A stretch of DNA of 57,645 nucleotides from Candidatus Parcubacteria bacterium (GTDB lineage Bacteria; Patescibacteriota; Minisyncoccia; Phycocordibacterales; UBA918). This document shows, piece after piece, positions 223-57,645 of the stretch. Numbering within the stretch: position 1 is the first letter of the stretch; the number at the start of each line of letters is the position of its first letter. The DNA is taken from assembly GCA_039799085.1 (NCBI GenBank), contig JBDLTL010000001.1, forward strand, positions 1 to 57,645. The letters are read 5' to 3'. The position numbers and the translations under genes were made by a program. A model generated the notes under the pieces. The model had not been told where the DNA came from. It searched no databases and saw only the letters and a program-made list of their open reading frames with translations.

Positions 223-245
223 TGGCGGAAGTGACAGGATTCGAA
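223..245 (-). pseudogene. Orphan tRNA 3' fragment (T-loop, T-stem 3' strand, acceptor 3' strand, discriminator G, encoded CCA)
   Basis: Minus strand reads TTCGAAT-CCTGT-CACTTCC-G-CCA. No T-stem 5' strand (ACAGG) lies upstream. CACTTCC is the exact complement of GGAAGTG in the orphan 5' fragment at 547-572. Confidence 0.6.
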
Positions 246-256
246 ACTTACAGTTT

Positions 257-293
257 CAGTACAAGCTGTCGATATTATTACTTCCTTATGGTC
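257..293 (-). repeat. Family-B short repeat, degenerate or shortened copy (B4)
   Basis: Minus strand GACCATAAGGAAGTAATAATATCGACAGCTTGTACTG shares GACC.., AAGGA(G/A)G, TCGAC and (A/C)(G/T)CTTGT(A/G).TG blocks with B1-B3. It lies 11 nt upstream of the orphan T-loop fragment. Confidence 0.4.
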
Positions 294-313
294 GTAAAAT
301 ATCTGACAACCTT

Positions 314-369: not shown

Positions 370-426
370 GACCAATTTTTAGGGAGACCTTAAGTCGACC
401 ATAAAAATGGAAATGCTCTTGTGGTG
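370..426 (+). repeat. Family-B short repeat, copy B2 (57 nt)
   Basis: GACCAATTTTTAGGGAGACCTTAAGTCGACCATAAAAATGGAAATGCTCTTGTGGTG. The last 26 nt match B3 at 24/26 and B1 at 21/26 by hand alignment. Confidence 0.7.
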
Positions 427-432
427 CAAGCG

Positions 433-546
433 TTAAAATTCTTAGCGGAGAGAAGAGGATTCGAACCTCCGATACGATTACTCGTATACATCCTTTCCAA
501 GGATGCGCATTCAACCACTCTGCCATCTCTCCGCTAAAAATTTTAA
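433..546. repeat. 14-nt inverted repeat (433-446 / 533-546, 13/14 complementary) bracketing tRNA-Ser(GGA)
   Basis: ttaaaattcttagc versus the reverse complement of gctaaaaattttaa (ttaaaatttttagc). It is contiguous with the 7-bp acceptor stem, giving a potential 21-bp helix. Confidence 0.75.
446..532 (-). tRNA. tRNA-Ser(GGA)
   Basis: Minus strand GGAGAGA-TG-GCAGAGTGGTTGAATGC-G-CATCC-TTGGAAA-GGATG-long variable arm (ATACGA gtaa TCGTAT)-GGAGG-TTCGAAT-CCTCT-TCTCTCC-G. No encoded CCA. Confidence 0.9.
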
Positions 547-572
547 GCCTTCAACCGCTCGGCCACACTTCC
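547..572 (-). pseudogene. Orphan tRNA-Ser-type 5' fragment (acceptor 5' strand plus D-arm only)
   Basis: Minus strand GGAAGTG-TG-GCCGAGCGGTTGAAGGC is a typical class II (Ser/Leu) D-arm. It runs straight into the inverted repeat flanking tRNA-Ser(GGA), with no anticodon arm. Confidence 0.6.
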
Positions 573-586
573 TTTAAAATCATCGG

Positions 587-731
587 CGGAAAGGGCGGGA
601 TTTGCACCACAAGAGTATTTCCGAAATTATAGTCGATACAAGCTCTCCTTAATTTCTAGGTCAACCCGCGATAGAGTTTCCCCTATGCCGGTTTTCGAAA
701 CCGGTGCTTTCAACCACTCAGCCACCTTTCC
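587..731 (-). tRNA. tRNA-Ser(CGA) interrupted by a 58-nt insert in the T-loop (87 nt without the insert)
   Basis: GGAAAGG-TG-GCTGAGTGGTTGAAAGC-A-CCGGT-TTCGAAA-ACCGG-variable arm-GCGGG-TT-[58 nt]-CAAAT-CCCGC-CCTTTCC-G. All stems are perfect once 605-662 is removed. Confidence 0.75.
605..662 (-). mobile_element. Family-B element copy B1 (58 nt) inserted between T-loop positions 55 and 56 of tRNA-Ser(CGA)
   Basis: Minus strand GACCTAGAAATTAAGGAGAGCTTGTATCGACTATAATTTCGGAAATACTCTTGTGGTG. Homologous to 370-426 and 54902-54955. No target duplication at the junctions. Confidence 0.65.
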
Positions 732-759
732 ATGAATGAGCGATTATTTATACCATATG

Positions 760-799
760 AAAGTGCGGTCAAAAATCTTTAGATTTTTGACCGCACTTT
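760..799 (-). terminator. Terminator hairpin downstream of the 802-1929 gene
   Basis: aaagtgcggtcaaaaatc / ttta / gatttttgaccgcacttt, an 18-bp perfect stem 2 nt after the stop codon. Confidence 0.8.
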
Positions 800-2978: not shown

Positions 2979-3368
2979 TTACAACGGAATTCCTTGTGGA
3001 CTCTCGTTTGATTTGTAGCCAACATCAGCTGACCAGTGCAGGAAATACCCGTGCTTGTATCCACCCTTTCGTATCAAGTTTTCTTTACGCGCAGCGATTA
3101 CTTCTTCTTTCGTTATTTCAAGCTGATTAATGAGGGTTTCGAGTACAACCATAAGGTCGCTGTATTCTTCGAGAAATTCTTGCTTTTCTCGCACCATTGC
3201 GATAGACGATGCTTCTTCTTGAATTTTTTTGAAGAGCTCTTGCTGAAGCTCCTGGACGTCAGTTATCTTTCGGTACTCACACTGCTCGTGCTTTCCTTCA
3301 ATTTTTGTTGGAATATTGTCACGCACCAACTTGTTGTAGTAGACACGAGTAATTTCGGACATACTCAA
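2979..3368 (-). CDS. MazG-like nucleoside triphosphate pyrophosphohydrolase
   Basis: 129 aa. The YNKLVRDNIP start and E-rich helices (EEASS..EFLEEYSDL) are typical of the small all-alpha NTP-PPase family. Confidence 0.65.
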   Translation of the reverse strand: MSMSEITRVYYNKLVRDNIPTKIEGKHEQCEYRKITDVQELQQELFKKIQEEASSIAMVREKQEFLEEYSDLMVVLETLINQLEITKEEVIAARKENLIRKGGYKHGYFLHWSADVGYKSNESPQGIPL

Positions 3369-39917: not shown

Positions 39918-40004
39918 ACTGTAAGTATACCAAAAAGTTCCTCATCCCCGCCTCAACATCGATAAACACAGAAAAGCGCCATGAAGGCGCTTTTCTCTGG
40001 TTTG

Positions 40005-40150
40005 CTGCCCGACAAGGACTCGGTCACGAATCACTAAGTATATTTATTCGCTTCGCTCTAAATCTACCAAGTGTTCTCGACCCCGGCTCGCTGTTCGTCG
40101 CTCTAGGAAAGGAGCGACTCACAACGCTCCGCCTTTCTCGTCCTTTGTCA
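40005..40150 (-). repeat. Family-A repeat copy E2, including an 18-nt copy of the tRNA-Gln 3' end (40005-40022)
   Basis: ctgcccgacaaggactcg is 18/18 identical to 41160-41177. It is followed by gtcacgaatcactaagtatattt..., homologous to 40980 onward. Confidence 0.7.
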
Positions 40151-40156
40151 GATTGG

Positions 40157-40202
40157 GCGAGCAAAAGAAAAACACCCTCAAGGGTGCTTTTCTTTTGCTC
40201 GC
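40157..40202. repeat. Long hairpin with about 20 bp of pairing
   Basis: gcgagcaaaagaaaaacaccct / caa / gggtgcttttcttttgctcgc. Confidence 0.6.
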
Positions 40203-40296
40203 TGGCTGTATGGAATGAAGTTAGAACTTTTTTAAATGAAAAAGCCGCCGTTCCCTTTCGGTACTAGGCGGCTACTGAGACACTAAAGGGCGTTGA

Positions 40297-40893
40297 TCAT
40301 TTGGGTGCCTTCTCACCCATGAAGCGACGGCCGACCAGTTGACTATGCAGATTTTCCAGAATCTCCACACCTACTGATGATACGCCCTTGAGCGAAAGGT
40401 GCGGATTGTCCTTATCTCGTTGCACAGGGCTCGTCTCGAGAAATTTTCGCAGAGCATTGTATGCTTCTGTTTCGAGAAAACCCTGCTGGTCTGCCCCGTT
40501 TTCTTGAAGAGCAAAGTAGGGTCGGATTTCACCGAGAAGTTCCTTGAAGTCAGAATAGCCCTCCAACGCCCGAAACGGGTCTTCGATGTCGACCTCATCC
40601 ATCAAGGATTTTTCAAGAACCGCAATTCCGGTAAGCAGTGATGCGAGACTCGAGAAGTCAATATAGACCTTTCTAGGTGCAAACACGCAGATTAAGTCTG
40701 AAACTCGTCCGAGGGCGATCGCGGCCTGGCCTGCTTCGATAAGACGATAGTAGGTCGGCGAAACTCCTAGCGATTGAGCCATATACTCAGTTGAGAGTTT
40801 TACCGAATTTCTTCTTAGGCGCAGATAAGCACCGAGGAACTTCTGGAGCGGGTTTAGGGCTCCGTTCGGAGCATGTACTCTATTTCTTCCCAT
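40297..40893 (-). CDS. XRE-family helix-turn-helix protein with an unknown C-terminal domain
   Basis: LRLRRNSVKLSTEYMAQSLGVSPTYYRLIEAGQ is an HTH_XRE pattern. It has its own terminator (agccgcctagtaccgaaagggaacggcggcttttt on the minus strand) just after the stop. Confidence 0.8.
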   Translation of the reverse strand: MGRNRVHAPNGALNPLQKFLGAYLRLRRNSVKLSTEYMAQSLGVSPTYYRLIEAGQAAIALGRVSDLICVFAPRKVYIDFSSLASLLTGIAVLEKSLMDEVDIEDPFRALEGYSDFKELLGEIRPYFALQENGADQQGFLETEAYNALRKFLETSPVQRDKDNPHLSLKGVSSVGVEILENLHSQLVGRRFMGEKAPK

Positions 40894-40961
40894 TGTTTTT
40901 CCCCTTCAGGAATAATCTTCTATAAGGAGAATAGAATGAAAATAGGGTATTGTCAAATATA

Positions 40962-41113
40962 CTGCCCGACAGGGACTCGGTCACGAATCACTAAGTATAT
41001 TTGTTCACTACGTTCCAAATCTACTAAGTGTTCTCGACCCAGACTCGCCGACAAGCCCTCGCTACGCTCGTCTTGTATACCGGCTCCGTCTTTCGAGTCC
41101 CTGTCCGGCTAGC
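40962..41113 (-). repeat. Family-A repeat copy E1, bounded by a direct (40962-40979) and an inverted (41094-41113) copy of the tRNA-Gln 3' end
   Basis: ctgcccgacagggactcg is 17/18 identical to the tRNA end. cgagtccctgtccggctagc on the same strand is its near reverse complement. The core is homologous to E2, E3 and E4. Confidence 0.7.
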
Positions 41114-51969: not shown

Positions 51970-53517
51970 ATGGTTATTGGAGTAGATAAAATCATTGGGC
52001 AAATCCGCCACCTTACCCCTGCCGACAAGGCGCTTATTGAACGTGCTTACGAATTTGCGGAAAAGGCACACGCGAACCACAAGCGGTACTCAGGCGATCC
52101 GTACATGATACACGTCGCTGATGTCGGCTTTAAGCTCGCCGCTATGGGCATGCAACCTTCTACCATTGCAGCCGGCCTCCTCCATGACACAGTCGAAGAC
52201 ACTGAAGTAACCACCACAGATATTAAAGAGCAGTTTGGTGAAGAAATCCTCTTTCTCGTAGATGGTGTTACCAAACTATCTTCTGTTCGCTACCACGGTA
52301 CTGACCGACACAACGAGAGCCTTCGTAAACTCTTCGTGGCAACTAGTCAGGATATCCGCGTCCTCATCATCAAGCTCGTCGACAGACTCCACAATCTCGA
52401 GACCCTTCACCACATTCCTGCCGAAAAACAGCTTCGTATCGCCCGCGAGACGCTTGAAATCCATGTTCCTGTCGCTCACCGCCTTGGTATGGGTAAGCTC
52501 CGCAAGGAACTTGAAGACTTGGCGTTTCCCTACGTATATCCCGAAGAAGCAAAACGTGTCGAAGCACTTCTCAAGCAACGTGCCGGCAAAAGTCAGGAGC
52601 TCCTAGAACGTGAACGAAAAATTCTTCAAAAACGCCTTGTCGATTCTGGACTCAAGGGATTCAACACCTTCTATCGAGTGAAGGGGCTTTACAGTCTCTA
52701 TCATAAGCTCAAAAGAAAAGAATGGGACATCAATGCTGTTTATGATCTTCTTGCCATGCGAGTCGTCGTGGAAAATATGGAAGATTGCTACCGTGTCCTT
52801 GGTATCGTACACGAGCTTTGGCGTCCACTTCCTAAGCGTGTAAAAGACTACATCGCCTTCCCTAAACCAAACGGGTACCAATCAATCCACACCACCGTCA
52901 CCACCCAAAACGGTGTCATCATGGAGATCCAAATCCGCACGAAGCGTATGCATCAAGAATCTGAATTCGGTGTGGCTTCTCACATCCTCTACAAGCAACC
53001 TGAAGTCACTGACAAAGTTGAGAAACCTTCAGTGTTTGCTTCTCTCATTCCTTCACTCTTCCGACCATTTCGTGCTCGTGCACTAGCCAGTGAACAGATT
53101 GATACTGCAAAAGCTGAGCCTCATCACCACAAAATCCCTCGCTGGATTTCACAAATTGGTCAAGTATATAACGAAACAAAACACTCTACCCAAAATTTCG
53201 TCGAGGACATGCAATCGGACTTCTTCTCAAACCGAATCTTTGTCTTCACCCCGATTGGCGACGTTGTCGACCTACCCGTCGGTGCTACGCCGATTGACTT
53301 TGCGTACGCGATTCACTCCGAAGTCGGAGATCATACAGCATCTGCAAAAATTAATAAAAAAATGGTCCAGCTTGATACTGAGCTTAAAAATGGTGACATT
53401 GTAGAAATTGAGACACGAAAATCTGCCCGCCCATCACCAAAATGGCTCGACTTTGCAAAAACTTCGCTGGCCAGACGACGTATCAGAAGCGCTCTTGAAG
53501 AAGGGGCTACACAGTAA
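51970..53517 (+). CDS. rel: Bifunctional (p)ppGpp synthetase/hydrolase, RelA/SpoT homologue
   Basis: HD domain (HDTVEDT), synthetase block (YRVKGLYSLYHKLKRK, DLLAMRVV, GYQSIHT), and a C-terminal TGS-like region (F.FTP.G). Confidence 0.92.
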   Translation: MVIGVDKIIGQIRHLTPADKALIERAYEFAEKAHANHKRYSGDPYMIHVADVGFKLAAMGMQPSTIAAGLLHDTVEDTEVTTTDIKEQFGEEILFLVDGVTKLSSVRYHGTDRHNESLRKLFVATSQDIRVLIIKLVDRLHNLETLHHIPAEKQLRIARETLEIHVPVAHRLGMGKLRKELEDLAFPYVYPEEAKRVEALLKQRAGKSQELLERERKILQKRLVDSGLKGFNTFYRVKGLYSLYHKLKRKEWDINAVYDLLAMRVVVENMEDCYRVLGIVHELWRPLPKRVKDYIAFPKPNGYQSIHTTVTTQNGVIMEIQIRTKRMHQESEFGVASHILYKQPEVTDKVEKPSVFASLIPSLFRPFRARALASEQIDTAKAEPHHHKIPRWISQIGQVYNETKHSTQNFVEDMQSDFFSNRIFVFTPIGDVVDLPVGATPIDFAYAIHSEVGDHTASAKINKKMVQLDTELKNGDIVEIETRKSARPSPKWLDFAKTSLARRRIRSALEEGATQ

Positions 53518-54685
53518 AGTTGTGCATTGAGTAGAGGTCGCTGTCGTCCTCTTCAGCCTCAAGAGGAATCTCCTCAGCAATTTCGTCTGGAATTTCTGGC
53601 ACAACGACAGCTTCACTAATCGCAGCTAGCGACTCAACGGACAAGGATGTGTTCTCATGCTGCGTCGGTACCGTATGAAACACCGGTGTAGTCACTTCTG
53701 TCACAAAATTTGGAATTGTATCTGACACTTCTACCATCTCAGATCTCGGTGCAACATCAAGAAATTCGGCAGGCAGAACAGGTGATATTTCAAGGGGTGT
53801 CGCTTCAGAGAGAGCTTCACTAGCCACCACTGCACGAGGAGCAAATGATACTCCCTGCTGTTCAGCTTTCATGCGATTCAAGATAACCTCAAGATCATCA
53901 GTTGAGAAATAGTCGATAGTAAGCTTCCCACCGAAGTCGGTCTTTTGAATCTGTACACGAGTACCGAGGGTCTCAGTAAAACGCTTCTCAATTTCAATAA
54001 GCTGAACGTCAAAGTCATCGGGGTTTCGCTTACGGATTTTGTCTGTCGCAATCTTTCTCGCAATGCGCTCCACTTCTCGAACTGAGAGTTTTTTGAGGAG
54101 AATTTCTTGAAATACGACTTCTTGCTCTTCTTTTCTATCATTGAGCATGAGAAGCGTTCGCGCATGCCCTTCAGAAAGTTTTCCAAGACGAAGCGCATCG
54201 AGCATGTGCGACGGCAACCCAAGGAGACGGATTGAGTTCGACACATACTCTCGACTTCGTCCCATCTTCTGAGCTACCTGAGCGTGTGAGAGCCCGAACA
54301 TATTAGCAAGTTGTTCAAAAGCGAGTGCACGGTCGACAGCATTGAGGTCCTCACGCTGAAGGTTTTCGATAATCGCAAGCTCGAGCTTTTCTTGTTCACT
54401 TTGCTCACCATCGCGAATAATCACCGGCACGAGCGAAACACCAGCAAGCTTACTGGCACGAAGACGTCGCTCACCAGCGATAAGTTCGTACTCAGTGAAG
54501 AATGTTCCATCTTCACGTTGGATTTCTTTACGGGTTACGGTAAGAGGCTGAAGTACGCCATACATGCGAATAGAATCAGCCAACTCTTGTAGCTTGTGCT
54601 GGTCAAATTCGCGTCGTGGTTGAAACGGATTGGGAACAATCTTCTCAACCTCTACCCAGTAAATTGAATCTCCTTGAAATGCCAT
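53507..54685 (-). CDS. parB: ParB/Spo0J partition protein with a roughly 130-aa acidic C-terminal extension
   Basis: I.PNPFQPRREF, GVLQPLTV and IAGERRLRA. Start at MAFQGD. Confidence 0.85.
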   Translation of the reverse strand: MAFQGDSIYWVEVEKIVPNPFQPRREFDQHKLQELADSIRMYGVLQPLTVTRKEIQREDGTFFTEYELIAGERRLRASKLAGVSLVPVIIRDGEQSEQEKLELAIIENLQREDLNAVDRALAFEQLANMFGLSHAQVAQKMGRSREYVSNSIRLLGLPSHMLDALRLGKLSEGHARTLLMLNDRKEEQEVVFQEILLKKLSVREVERIARKIATDKIRKRNPDDFDVQLIEIEKRFTETLGTRVQIQKTDFGGKLTIDYFSTDDLEVILNRMKAEQQGVSFAPRAVVASEALSEATPLEISPVLPAEFLDVAPRSEMVEVSDTIPNFVTEVTTPVFHTVPTQHENTSLSVESLAAISEAVVVPEIPDEIAEEIPLEAEEDDSDLYSMHNFTV

Positions 54686-54802
54686 ATATAGAAAAATACC
54701 CAAGCGGTCCACCTCCAAAATTGGTAGCAAAATGCTCTTGCCGTCATTCTACCACAGACCGTATTCTCGCCCTGTTTATAACTTTGCTTACGATGGGAAA
54801 TT

Positions 54803-54972
54803 ATGGGACTTGGTCACAAGTCACTCCTTTCAGTCGTGCTCGCGACCCCACCTCGCCGACAAGCCCTCGCTTCGTTCGTCTTGTGTACCGGCTCCGGCTT
54901 TGACCTAATTTTCAAGGAGTGAAACGACTATGAAAATGGAAATGCTCTTGTAGTGCAAGTCCCATCTCCAAC
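54803..54972. mobile_element. Composite: T-arm fragment (54803-54812), family-A copy E3 (54813-54901), nested family-B copy B3 (54902-54955), inverted tRNA-Leu 3'-end copy (54956-54972)
   Basis: atgggacttg and caagtcccat(ctccaac) are inverted and match the T-arm/acceptor of tRNA-Leu(CAA) at 55021-55046. B3 sits precisely at the junction that is uninterrupted in copy E1 (41093/41094). Confidence 0.65.
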
Positions 54973-54984
54973 TACAAAATACAA

Positions 54985-55012
54985 CGACCGCAAACTTGGC
55001 AGTTTGCGGTCG
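54985..55012 (-). terminator. Terminator downstream of tRNA-Leu
   Basis: cgaccgcaaact / tggc / agtttgcggtcg, with T-runs on both sides. Confidence 0.75.
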
Positions 55013-55020
55013 GTATTTTG

Positions 55021-55101
55021 TGCTGGAGATGGGACTTGAACCCATAAGCCTTGCGGCATTCGATTTTGAGTCGAACGTGTATACCATTCCACCACTCCAG
55101 C
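55021..55101 (-). tRNA. tRNA-Leu(CAA)
   Basis: GCTGGAG-TG-GTGGAATGGTATACAC-G-TTCGA-CTCAAAA-TCGAA-variable arm-ATGGG-TTCAAGT-CCCAT-CTCCAGC-A. Confidence 0.9.
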
Positions 55102-55202
55102 GAATGCACATGAGTGTAGCAAATAATATCACTTACATCTAGTTTTGCGCCCGCAGTGCAAAGCACTGCGGGCGCATCAGTTCTATATGCTACACTTTTG
55201 GC

Positions 55203-56099
55203 ATGTCAAAACCTAAAGTCATCGCCATTGTAGGACCAACTGCCTCAGGCAAGACTGCTCTTTCAATTGCAATTGCAAAAAAGTTCGGCGGTGAAGTTGT
55301 CTCTGCCGACTCAAGGCAGGTCTACGTTGGCATGGATATCGGCACAGGAAAAATCACTCACGACGAAATGCAAGGGGTTCCTCATCACCTTATCGACATT
55401 GCTGATCCTGTGACTGTTTACACCGGTGCAGACTTTGCTCGAGATGCACACAAAGCTGTCACTGCCATTCACAATCGAGGACACCTTCCCATCGTTGCTG
55501 GTGGTACGTTTTTCTACATCGACCTTCTCCGTGGCAAGATGCAACCAGCACCTGTGGAACCAAACGAAGACTTCCGTAATTCACTCGCCCACTTCAAAGA
55601 TGATGAGCTCTTTGCTCAACTACAAGACAAGGACCCGAAGCGAGCAGAAAACATCGACCCGTTCAATCGTCGTCGCCTCGTACGTGCACTGGAAGTTATT
55701 GAAGCTCTCGGTAGCGTACCTGAACACAAACCAGCTGAATCACCGTACGATTGGCTCATCATCGGTGTTGAAGTACCGAATTCACCGCTCCATGACAAAA
55801 TCCGCGAACGTCTTTTGGTGCGACTCGAAGCCGGCATGATAAAAGAGGTTGAAAATCTCGTTGCACAAGGAGTTTCCTATGAGCGTCTTGATGACCTTGG
55901 TCTTGAGTATCGTTACATTGGTCAATACCTCCAAAAACAACTCACCTACGATGAAATGGTAAACCAACTTGAAACGAAAATTCGTCAGTACGCCAAGCGT
56001 CAACTCACTTGGCTTAAGCGCGACGCAGAAATTGAATGGTATTCCGCGAGCAATCATCCTGCGATTTTCTCCCGTCTTGAGGATTTTCTAAAAGAATAA
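55203..56099 (+). CDS. miaA: tRNA dimethylallyltransferase
   Basis: IAIVGPTASGKT, SADSRQVY.GMDIGT.K and HHLID. Confidence 0.93.
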   Translation: MSKPKVIAIVGPTASGKTALSIAIAKKFGGEVVSADSRQVYVGMDIGTGKITHDEMQGVPHHLIDIADPVTVYTGADFARDAHKAVTAIHNRGHLPIVAGGTFFYIDLLRGKMQPAPVEPNEDFRNSLAHFKDDELFAQLQDKDPKRAENIDPFNRRRLVRALEVIEALGSVPEHKPAESPYDWLIIGVEVPNSPLHDKIRERLLVRLEAGMIKEVENLVAQGVSYERLDDLGLEYRYIGQYLQKQLTYDEMVNQLETKIRQYAKRQLTWLKRDAEIEWYSASNHPAIFSRLEDFLKE

Positions 56100-56168
56100 C
56101 CGTAGTTGATTTTATTGTTCCTTTCGCCTACTATACAGCGACGTTTGGGAAACCAAACTTACATAAGA

Positions 56169-56239
56169 GGGCCTATAGTTCAGTGGTAGAATGCCGGTCT
56201 CCAAAACCGTTGACCGAGGTTCGAATCCTCGTGGGCCCG
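56169..56239 (+). tRNA. tRNA-Trp(CCA)
   Basis: GGGCCTA-TA-GTTCAGTGGTAGAAT-G-CCGGT-CTCCAAA-ACCGT-TGAC-CGAGG-TTCGAAT-CCTCG-TGGGCCC-G. Confidence 0.92.
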
Positions 56240-56247
56240 CGAGTATC

Positions 56248-56274
56248 AAAAACAACCCATGTAGGGTTGTTTTT
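56248..56274 (+). terminator. Terminator after tRNA-Trp
   Basis: aaaaacaaccc / atgta / gggttgttttt. Confidence 0.8.
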
Positions 56275-56280
56275 GTTTGT

Positions 56281-56383
56281 GGGAGCAAGGGCTTGTCGGC
56301 GAGCTGAGGTCGAGGGTACTTAGAAAAATATGAGCGAAACGAAATATTTTACCTAGTAGCTCGTGACTGAATCCTCGTGGGCC
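56281..56383 (+). repeat. Family-A repeat copy E4 (left-truncated) ending in a 15-nt direct repeat of the tRNA-Trp 3' end (56369-56383 = 56223-56237)
   Basis: gggcttgtcggcgag..ggtcgag..acttag....cgtgac is the reverse-complement orientation of the E1-E3 core. It is followed by gaatcctcgtgggcc. Confidence 0.7.
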
Positions 56384-56393
56384 AGCAAAAATA

Positions 56394-56420
56394 AAACTCC
56401 TTTCGTTCCGAGAGGAGTTT
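56394..56420. terminator. Bidirectional terminator
   Basis: aaactccttt(c) / gttcc / (g)agaggagttt, with T-runs on both strands. Confidence 0.7.
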
Positions 56421-56427
56421 ATTTTGC

Positions 56428-57450
56428 TTAATTTGCAAACTTTGCCACACACGCTCTTTGCTTTGGGTGTGGTTCGCTGTCAGTCCCCAACCAAGCACGA
56501 TAGCCATTTTCTGTTTCATAAATACACAGTGCAGCAGCAACATTACACTGCTGGTTTGATGCCGCCGTTCTACACAAAGCAGCCTGAGCTTCCATTCCAG
56601 CTTTTGGCTTTCCTCCTGAATAGGCTTTTGAGCAGTTAAGATCTGTACTTGAATTTACAGCAGCCTTACACTGAGGAAGATTGAGGTTGTGACAACTGTT
56701 ATTGTAGCCAAATACGACCTGGAACATACCACTTGCAGAAGAGTTTGGATTAGGAGCAGGATTATTGTTACAGGTACTCTCCGCTTCAGCAATGCAAGAA
56801 AATACATTTGCTTGTGTAGCATTCATACCCATCGACTGAAGCTTTGCTGGACTACAATCAGCCTTTGTTGAAACACCAGCCGCACCAACCAGAGCTGGAT
56901 CCACTGGACCTAGGGATTCAAGCATTTGTGCCGCAGTAAATACAGGGTCTGCATCAAAAAAGTTTGGCTCAATCTTTGAGCTCGCCTGTTCAGTACACCT
57001 CACCTTCGTCCACGGACCCCAGCCATCAATCTCTCCACTTCCACCCTTCAATAACGTATGGAGCAATGTATCAATTAAGAGCCACGCACAAAGGAAGATA
57101 ATGAGTCCAATGAATGCATTAGTGAAACTCTGTTTGGCTGCCTGGAGAGCACCAGGATTGCCTTCTGTGACAAGCTTGAAGCCAGCTCGGACCGCCAAGA
57201 TCGCGAAGAAGAGGAAAGCCATGCCAAAAAGCCACTTGATGATGGTGTTGGCCATCACCATGAAGTCACAGAGGTCGCAGGTGATACCGGAGCATGGGAC
57301 GAAGCCTTTCCCTTGAATAACCCCTTCTCCGCTGATAGTAGGGTCTTTGAAAGAGTCGGCGATTTGGGATTGAGCAAAACTCGCCGAAACAGAATAAAAG
57401 AAGAAAAAAACGAAAGTAAAGATTAATGCTGCAGCTGTCTTTTTAAACAT
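56428..57450 (-). CDS. T4SS-pilin-like (TrbC/VirB2-type) N-terminal domain fused to a Cys-rich, possibly lysozyme-like C-terminal domain
   Basis: Signal peptide MFKKTAAALIFTFVFFFFYSVSASFA. LVTEGNPGALQAAKQSFTNAFIGLIIFLCAWLLI matches the two-TM ..GNP....AK pilin pattern seen in CPR genomes. The C-terminal AEAES...SGMFQV resembles SLT E-S / G-L-M-Q motifs. Confidence 0.65.
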   Translation of the reverse strand: MFKKTAAALIFTFVFFFFYSVSASFAQSQIADSFKDPTISGEGVIQGKGFVPCSGITCDLCDFMVMANTIIKWLFGMAFLFFAILAVRAGFKLVTEGNPGALQAAKQSFTNAFIGLIIFLCAWLLIDTLLHTLLKGGSGEIDGWGPWTKVRCTEQASSKIEPNFFDADPVFTAAQMLESLGPVDPALVGAAGVSTKADCSPAKLQSMGMNATQANVFSCIAEAESTCNNNPAPNPNSSASGMFQVVFGYNNSCHNLNLPQCKAAVNSSTDLNCSKAYSGGKPKAGMEAQAALCRTAASNQQCNVAAALCIYETENGYRAWLGTDSEPHPKQRACVAKFAN

Positions 57451-57457
57451 AATATCT

Positions 57458-57645
57458 CTATCTTGCACCACCCATATCACAGTGAATGTGATTTGCCCCT
57501 CGCTCATCATTAATAAAAGTAAACCCTGCCGACCGACACAATTGAATGATTTGATCGTAGTTAGCACCGCCCGAAACCGGCTGCAAGTCAACCGCCGTTC
57601 CTACATAATGCTGACTATTCGCACTATGCCCAACACCTTCTGTGT
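57458..57645 (-). CDS. LAS-type zinc peptidase (M15, VanY / D-Ala-D-Ala carboxypeptidase-like), C-terminal part only
   Basis: Hand translation ..SQHYVGTAVDLQP...ANHIHCDMGGAR*. This gives H-x6-D and H-x-H zinc ligands. The gene continues beyond the window. Confidence 0.6.
   Translation of the reverse strand, partial: TEGVGHSANSQHYVGTAVDLQPVSGGANYDQIIQLCRSAGFTFINDERGANHIHCDMGGAR

Follow-up and report, generated by a model that had tools for sequence, protein, structure and literature searches.

Is the tRNA-Ser(CGA) gene of this Candidatus Parcubacteria genome, which has perfect exons on either side of an insert in its T-loop, the site of a recent disruptive insertion, or does it carry an intervening sequence that is removed from the transcript? 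Both possibilities were raised in an initial annotation of the window, by which we mean the whole stretch of DNA analysed here (57,645 nucleotides; positions 1 to 57,645 of contig JBDLTL010000001.1, GenBank assembly GCA_039799085.1). That annotation had placed a 58-nt insert (662-605) exactly between T-loop nucleotides 55 and 56, and both its coordinates and its junctions proved exact in the minus-strand reading. The locus is made up of the following parts, where E denotes the element to which the insert belongs.

663-731, minus strand: 5' part of tRNA-Ser(CGA), nt 1-55, with the T-stem GCGGG plus T54 and T55 as its 3' limit
605-662, minus strand: copy c1 of element E, 58 nt, which in the tRNA sense consists of GACC, a covarying hairpin and the tail GGAAATACTCTTGTGGTG
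587-604, minus strand: 3' part of tRNA-Ser(CGA), nt 56-73, CAAATCCCGCCCTTTCCG, without an encoded CCA
743-772, minus strand: promoter-like site TTGACC-18-AATAAT, overlapping TGGTATAAAT, 5' of the interrupted tRNA

The interrupted gene is of class II, with a 7-bp acceptor stem, a D arm, an anticodon arm (CCGGT/TTCGAAA/ACCGG) and a long variable arm, and 604-587 supplies the rest of the T-loop, the T-stem, the acceptor stem and the discriminator G. With the insert in place, ARAGORN gives no call for tRNA-Ser(CGA), and the Rfam tRNA model covers 587-731 at 43 bits, with 63 nt taken as a T-loop insertion. When the 58 nt are deleted in silico, ARAGORN calls a tRNA-Ser(cga) that spans the junction. 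These results with and without the 58 nt show that the observation is exact and no chance resemblance. The perfect exons mean either that the insertion is recent or that the gene is still in use.

If the gene is in use, E could be an RNA-level intervening sequence that is excised from the pre-tRNA, after which the halves would be ligated or would form a two-piece tRNA held by the T and acceptor stems. We consider this unlikely, and several features of the locus agree with it. E lies in the tRNA sense, 3' of the promoter-like site (772-743), and because of this site a 145-nt transcript is expected from the interrupted gene. In the predicted fold of this transcript (marginally better than shuffles, z = -1.98), the cloverleaf stems are formed, E projects from an extended T-stem, and both junctions would lie opposite each other within one continuous helix (UUG/CAA plus ACC/GGU). 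The junction sequence GGGTT^GACC...GGTG^CAAAT (^ marks the junctions) has a U at -1 and a G as the last base of the insert, as at group I junctions.

The initial annotation cited T-loop interruptions from archaea. They are known from bacteria as well, where group I introns (average 414 bp, with a P3-P9 catalytic core) interrupt the T-psi-C loop of bacterial tmRNA genes at four subsites (PMC11915505). Copy c1 resembles them in interrupting a bacterial T-loop, including the subsite after the second loop nucleotide, and in the U 5' of the insert and the G at its end. At 58 nt, against roughly 200 nt or more, and with no Rfam intron or ribozyme match at E<=10, it is neither a group I intron nor a known small ribozyme. 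A bulge-helix-bulge motif consists of two 3-nt bulges separated by a 4-bp helix; here the predicted fold is continuous, and on inspection the ACCU that follows TT^G (4 nt) has no pairing partner in AAAU. No splicing endonuclease (EndA-like) is encoded among the 59 open reading frames of the window. Archaeal and eukaryal non-canonical tRNA introns (PMC3241643, PMC9602550) share with c1 the short insert, a position that can include the T-arm and the intact exons, whereas c1 has no bulge-helix-bulge motif, no EndA in the window and a bacterial host, and is a dispersed repeat that is missing from the orthologue. Without a bulge-helix-bulge motif, a group I core or a splicing endonuclease in the window, removal at the level of the transcript gained no support.

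The DUF3137 gene at 802-1929 adjoins the tRNA cluster and has homologues in Paceibacterota/Parcubacteria, whose contigs share the gene order LemA, hypothetical, M48 peptidase and DUF3137. We found the loci of relatives through homologous proteins and the contigs that encode them; a metagenome protein scan for DUF3137 orthologues gave no match. In one relative (L103, 65% protein identity in DUF3137), the DUF3137 gene has behind it tRNA-Ser(GGA) and then a tRNA-Ser(CGA) without interruption, which scores 63.9 bits with the Rfam tRNA model. This gene is identical to the exons of the window apart from 4 variable-arm positions, two of them paired and compensatory and two G-C/G.U swaps, and by inspection the stem stays paired; such compensatory changes, like the perfect exons, would fit a gene that is kept functional by RNA removal. 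Compared with this empty site, c1 adds 58 nt exactly between ...GGGTT and CAAAT..., without target duplication. Six further relatives (L101, L102, L107 and L109-L111) have tRNA-Ser(GGA) alone at the DUF3137 locus. The simplest layout among the relatives is DUF3137, tRNA-Ser(GGA), a terminator and then DUF378 on the opposite strand, and L109 has the terminator and promoter of the window directly 5' of tRNA-Ser(GGA). Since L103 has an empty site and the other relatives lack the allele, the interrupted allele is present only in the lineage of the window, within a rearranged tRNA cluster, and the absence of the insert from L103 and all other relatives speaks against RNA removal.

Three loci from other samples with an identical or close DUF3137 (L001, L002 and L108) lie on contigs that stop in or just after the DUF3137 terminator hairpin, before the tRNA cluster, which suggests that repeats or strain heterogeneity break assemblies there. 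Together with the repeated nature of E, these contig ends are what could make the insert an assembly artefact, formed by a chimeric join through E. Such an origin is extremely unlikely, as two precise junctions that jointly restore a perfect T-loop would both need to be chimeric, and the left junction GGGTT^GACC is missing from the other copies of E.

The window contains three copies of GGAAATRCTCTTGTRGTG, the 3' end of the insert, where chance would give 0, and the similarity of the three copies extends beyond this tail over the whole insert.

605-662, minus strand: E copy c1, 68.9 bits with model R1
370-426, plus strand: E copy c2, in antisense to the tRNAs, with CAAGCG directly after it
54902-54955, plus strand: E copy c3, between an inverted tRNA-Leu 3' part (54956-54970) and a module V

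We looked for E with a motif scan of one genome per species, a metagenome scan and a scan of viral contigs. The one-genome-per-species scan detected the complete element in 11 MAG loci, all of them Patescibacteria (Saccharibacteria, Paceibacterota, Nomura- and Taylorbacteria where the host is named) or unnamed; two further motif matches, in Treponema and Clostridia, were coding-sequence coincidences. About 32 further copies came from the metagenome scan. Altogether, about 55 copies were found in Patescibacteria MAGs and metagenomes. The copy closest to c1 that we saw is in another metagenome (L068). Viral contigs yielded no E; all 24 matches there were due to chance and lacked the element body, and an origin of E as a phage attP site was rejected on these grounds.

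We aligned 40 distinct copies (alignment A3) and built from them the covariance model R1, which detected exactly three copies in the window and 67 matches across the collected loci. The layout consists of a near-invariant TGACC start, a stem of 2 + 7 pairs, a variable inner hairpin and, 3' of the hairpin, an invariant tail of 16-18 nt that is the same across deep CPR lineages, with 18 nt kept unchanged across CPR classes. The 9-bp stem is variable in sequence yet complementary, with 95.6% pairing against 77% in shuffles; its covariation score of 0.48, against 0.15, was reached by 0 of 500 shuffles, and all slid registers collapse. The helix proposed in the initial annotation to bring the two junctions together (AGGAGAG/CTCTTGT) is not conserved in the family, in which CC...GG and 7 A/U-rich pairs make up the covarying helix; the ACC/GGT pairing proposed with it is present in the predicted fold, and both of its sides are invariant across the copies. 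With RNA or DNA parameters, 33-38 of the 40 copies fold more stably as the E-sense strand than as its complement, a comparison in which the relatedness of the copies inflates the p-values and the direction is consistent. The covarying stem and the strand-specific fold make E a structured element of defined polarity. A T directly precedes E in about 37 of the 40 copies and so behaves like a base of the element, not like a splice signal.

Several other identities for E were considered and rejected. Its ends (TGACC... and ...GTGGTG) do not form inverted repeats; without terminal inverted repeats or a target-site duplication it is not a classical MITE. A promoter on the reverse complement (TTGCAC-N17-TTTTAT) is not conserved, is lacking in c1 and was not supported by the promoter scan, which also found no promoter-like sites facing the E-sense strand. 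A short open reading frame (MEILLW...) is not conserved among the copies and is missing from c1. Neither E nor the module V described below matched Rfam, even at permissive thresholds, and full-text literature searches found no published description of E, V or the tRNA-linked units, so that the family and the units appear to be undescribed.

For about half of the E copies, the 3' end of a tRNA or tmRNA gene is 20-145 nt away, and most of these copies are antisense to the gene. A recurrent unit is found 3' of many intact CPR tRNA genes and of tmRNA genes, and it consists of a terminator, an inverted copy of the tRNA's own nt 56-73 (sometimes carrying an inserted hairpin), a structured module and nt 56-73 once more as a direct copy. 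Two kinds of module occur here, V (AAAGCCGGAGCC... GGGCTTGTCGGCGAG... GGGTCGAG-hairpin-CTCGTGAC) and an E-like module with a hairpin behind it that has covarying stems and a conserved GTA loop. Our census covered 47 distinct tRNAs whose downstream sequence was long enough. A direct copy of the gene's own nt 56-68 (at least 11 of 13 bases; by our own estimate about 0.005 expected by chance per gene) was present within 450 nt downstream of 18 of them, and an inverted copy of the own 3' part downstream of 11. Units that match the sequence of their own tRNA follow tRNA-Leu, tRNA-Gln and tRNA-Trp in the window.

54803-54901, minus strand: module V (54813-54901), then a direct tRNA-Leu 3'-part fragment, CAAGTCCCAT (54803-54812); this unit belongs to tRNA-Leu(CAA), 55021-55101
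40004-41113, minus strand: two tandem units without E, 3' of tRNA-Gln
40962-41113, minus strand: unit 1 of tRNA-Gln, with inv1 41094-41113, V1 40980-41093 and dir1 40962-40979
40297-40893: HTH gene between the two tRNA-Gln units, 198 aa
40004-40162, minus strand: unit 2 of tRNA-Gln, with inv2 40137-40162, V2 40023-40136 and dir2 40004-40022
56282-56385, plus strand: module V without E and direct tRNA-Trp 3' part (56368-56385), then a second intrinsic terminator

The tRNA-Trp unit has no inverted 3'-part copy. The distal direct copy of the tRNA-Gln units is identical to the tRNA-Gln 3' part, and the tandem arrangement suggests that units integrated one after the other, once with cargo. Among the relatives, units are variable, being present in L102 and L103 and missing from L101 and L110. 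Of the two strands of V, it is the tRNA-sense strand that folds better, in 9 of 9 copies. The strand stabilities of E and V follow one rule, namely that on the folding strand the module is directly followed by the tRNA nt 56-73 segment, and c1 follows this rule as well.

Two further observations concern the surroundings of tRNA-Leu. The segment 54956-55038 is a near-perfect palindrome of tRNA-Leu 3' part, spacer, bidirectional terminator, mirrored spacer and inverted 3' part, and the same design is present at a tRNA-Tyr (L006). The order parB, tRNA-Leu(CAA), miaA, tRNA-Trp and T4SS-pilin-like gene is found both in the window (53507-57591) and in a Saccharibacteria-labelled MAG (L007, 1736-6942); both have an E-bearing unit 3' of tRNA-Leu(CAA), with the tRNA-Leu segment inverted between them.

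The units show E as an optional part. Where E is absent (L102, L103, L046, L068, L087, L089 and the tRNA-Gln unit of the window), the junction of the inverted part and V reads ...TTG^AAAG..., and exactly at this junction the reverse complement of E is present in c3 of the window, L015, L011, L055 and L007, while L046 and L057 have E there in the other orientation. Viewed in the E sense, the site reads ...CTTT^CAA(A/G)TCC... and mimics a T-loop and T-stem. E is also nested in another E (L010), partly duplicated (L053) and inserted in the loop of unrelated perfect hairpins (L013, L047 and L092). This optional presence, the use of both orientations and the nesting are marks of a discrete moving unit.

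Two positional rules for E do not hold in general. In some loci (L013, L047, L092 and the T-stem at c1) its flanks pair into a hairpin that has E at the tip, an arrangement that is not general (mean score 4.4 against 3.9 in shuffles), and a fixed NAA target on the 3' side was partly an artefact of the search pattern, as secondary copies have other flanks. At tRNA-Lys in L046 (6029-6263, plus strand), three diverged same-sense copies of E stand in tandem 3' of the gene, with spacers of 28 and 42 nt that partly pair with each other. A conserved motif, AAATTCNNAATAGTCG...CGCTCGTTTC, often lies directly 3' of E (L075, L079, L083, L099, L071, L102 at 1558-1600 and L007 at about 3165-3185); it forms a direct repeat flanking an E-containing segment in L075, stands upstream of the M48 peptidase gene in L102, and may be a third module or target type.

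The same units bear on the possibility that E and V are functional RNA modules of the host and not mobile DNA, for example parts of small RNAs that carry a tRNA 3' part, with c1 having arisen by illegitimate recombination or gene conversion. The tail that is the same across deep CPR lineages, the lack of a linked transposase, the strand-specific covarying folds of both E and V, the presence of units behind about 40% of the sampled tRNAs and behind every intact tRNA of the window, and the terminator that some V-plus-3'-part segments have of their own all agree with such a role. We think it rather unlikely, because close relatives differ in whether they have units and E, E takes either orientation at one junction and is nested in itself, promoter-like sites facing the E-sense strand were not found, and gene conversion needs homology on the left side, where TT alone is shared. 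That E is instead a new class of bacterial tRNA intervening sequence, with RNAs composed of a module and tRNA nt 56-73 as functional CPR-specific products, is likewise improbable.

The V units also recall the islands and prophages that tyrosine integrases place at the T-loop sublocation of tRNA and tmRNA genes (Islander, PMC4383910; phage Ms6, PMC1762012). They share with these the T-loop target, the restored tRNA, the displaced direct 3' copy, tandem accretion and occasional cargo, and they differ in being only about 170-250 bp long, in lacking an integrase, and in having an extra inverted 3'-part copy and structured modules. Copy c1 could accordingly be read as the scar of an island that had integrated at the T-loop, its attL and attR arms fused by deletion of the interior. 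T-loop integration with tRNA 3'-part repeats is classical (PMC1762012, PMC4383910), and the V units of the window have direct repeats, a tandem array and a cargo gene. This origin is nevertheless very unlikely for c1, where the tRNA 3' part is neither duplicated nor restored and no integrase is nearby; E is discrete, with the same boundaries in more than 50 places, and double-stranded arm-type binding sites would not be expected to have covarying stems.

A mobile E remains our preferred reading of c1, and the neighbourhood of the interrupted gene contains a second damaged tRNA gene, remnant X, side by side with it.

547-572, minus strand: 5' piece of remnant X, nt 1-26 of a tRNA-Ser(UGA)-like gene, identical at 24 of 26 positions to the tRNA-Ser(tga) of L074
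223-244, minus strand: 3' piece of remnant X, TCGAATCCTGTCACTTCCGCCA, nt 55-76 including CCA
184-222: terminator 3' of the remnant X 3' piece
446-532, minus strand: intact tRNA-Ser(GGA), with complementary leader (533-548) and trailer (430-445)
245-307, minus strand: second module, E-like, and a GTA-loop hairpin (GAAACT/AGTTTC stem), homologous to modules of L049, L056 and L085

The acceptor strands of the two X pieces are perfectly complementary, the pieces are about 300 nt apart, and nt 27-53 are lacking. Between them lie the intact tRNA-Ser(GGA), c2 and the E-like module. The unit 3' of tRNA-Ser(GGA) has a direct copy that belongs to remnant X and not to tRNA-Ser(GGA). A split gene with its middle part encoded nearby was rejected for X, as no anticodon arm or other middle part, and no ACAGGTT, occurs anywhere in the window. 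Remnant X suggests that the genome may have few spare tRNA-Ser genes, a point in favour of an RNA-level removal of E from tRNA-Ser(CGA). The leader and trailer of tRNA-Ser(GGA) would lengthen its acceptor stem by about 14 bp, their complementarity is kept in L103 (3779-3792 and 3881-3895), and they may form a processing stem.

What could move E? Of the 59 open reading frames of the window, 55 were scanned against Pfam, and we found no transposase, integrase, HUH nuclease or reverse transcriptase encoded in the window. The HTH cargo protein (40297-40893) has no recombinase signature. Across about 55 loci, no protein family recurs near E, and a Y1/HUH transposase was found neither in the window nor near these copies. 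As no linked enzyme was found, a mobilising enzyme is hypothetical and must act in trans.

REP/REPIN sequences (REP families as in PMC3733652), which are mobilised by RAYT, and the PATEs of the IS200/IS605 family are non-autonomous single-strand hairpin elements. E resembles both in being a short, multi-copy, intergenic and strand-specific hairpin with a conserved flanking motif, in occurring as inverted pairs or arrays, in inserting precisely without target duplication, and in depending on an enzyme in trans, which for E is hypothetical. In contrast to them, E is a single hairpin with an invariant 3' tail, and has neither the distinct left- and right-end hairpins of PATEs nor the GTAG/CGTC tag of REPs. 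No Y1/HUH gene was seen in the window or near the copies of E. It further differs from these elements in being conserved across whole CPR classes instead of being species-specific and in being anchored to T-loop position 56.

How often E enters real tRNA genes bears directly on whether it could be removed from transcripts. Only 1 of the 67 R1 matches interrupts a tRNA or tmRNA, though each genome offers dozens of real T-loops and the usual site of E is T-loop-like, which suggests that such insertions are selected against. This depletion argues against a harmless removal from transcripts, as does the fact that most copies are antisense to tRNAs, beyond terminators and without promoters. The strand-specific fold of E includes G.U pairs, and a G.U-type strand asymmetry is equally compatible with a function as RNA. 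A second possible T-arm insertion is present in a Saccharibacteria locus (L012, 4674-4732, minus strand: CTAGG TT^E^CAAAT CCTAG AGCGCGG A); its contig ends 55 nt upstream, and the region downstream resembles 245-380 of the window.

As a copy of E, c1 is thus probably a non-autonomous, strand-specific mobile module that disrupts tRNA-Ser(CGA) in a single lineage. A recent disruptive insertion, the first of the two possibilities named at the outset and favoured here by the dispersed repeat, the empty orthologous site and the restriction of the allele to one lineage, is most likely, rather than a new kind of intron. E and V would be parts of one system, whose small elements attach at T-loop position 56 of tRNA and tmRNA genes. 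E would act as a folded single strand, presenting the hairpin and the invariant 3' tail, and its usual target would be the TT^CAA junction, a T-loop-like site within the inverted copy of the tRNA 3' part that V units carry. At c1 it would have landed in a genuine T-loop, at the bond that is used in the pseudo-T-loops of the units (here T54T55^C56 of tRNA-Ser(CGA)), without target duplication and in this lineage alone. We infer that the chemistry is a strand-specific cut-and-join on folded DNA, of the HUH/Y1 type or by a recombinase, with the enzyme supplied in trans. The interrupted gene would be transcribed with E inside and be either non-functional or functional only after precise excision of the DNA; loss of function of tRNA-Ser(CGA) is what we infer. 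Several points count against a mobile E, namely that no linked enzyme was found and viral contigs yielded no copy, that the exons show no decay and the closest c1-like copy seen is in another metagenome, that the strand asymmetry would suit an RNA as well, and that a conserved function in the host, rather than mobility, could explain why the tail is identical across deep CPR lineages. If X was the only tRNA-Ser(UGA), a further loss of tRNA-Ser(CGA) could hardly be tolerated.

The interrupted tRNA is the visible part of a larger pattern, in which tiny units without enzymes stand 3' of a large share of Patescibacteria tRNA and tmRNA genes. The novelty lies less in an intron than in what is apparently an undescribed family of structured modules anchored to tRNA position 56. 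For the annotation of CPR MAGs, the units create tRNA fragments and broken tRNAs, and probably assembly breaks at tRNA loci. Should the complete genome have no other decoder of UCG and UCA, the removal of E from RNA would gain much weight, and if the modules act as RNA, they would represent a new bacterial route of tRNA processing. If they are mobile DNA, they would constitute a family of miniature tRNA-targeting elements with a folded, strand-specific attachment module and a trans-acting enzyme, with a bearing on genome plasticity in organisms thought to be poor in mobile elements.
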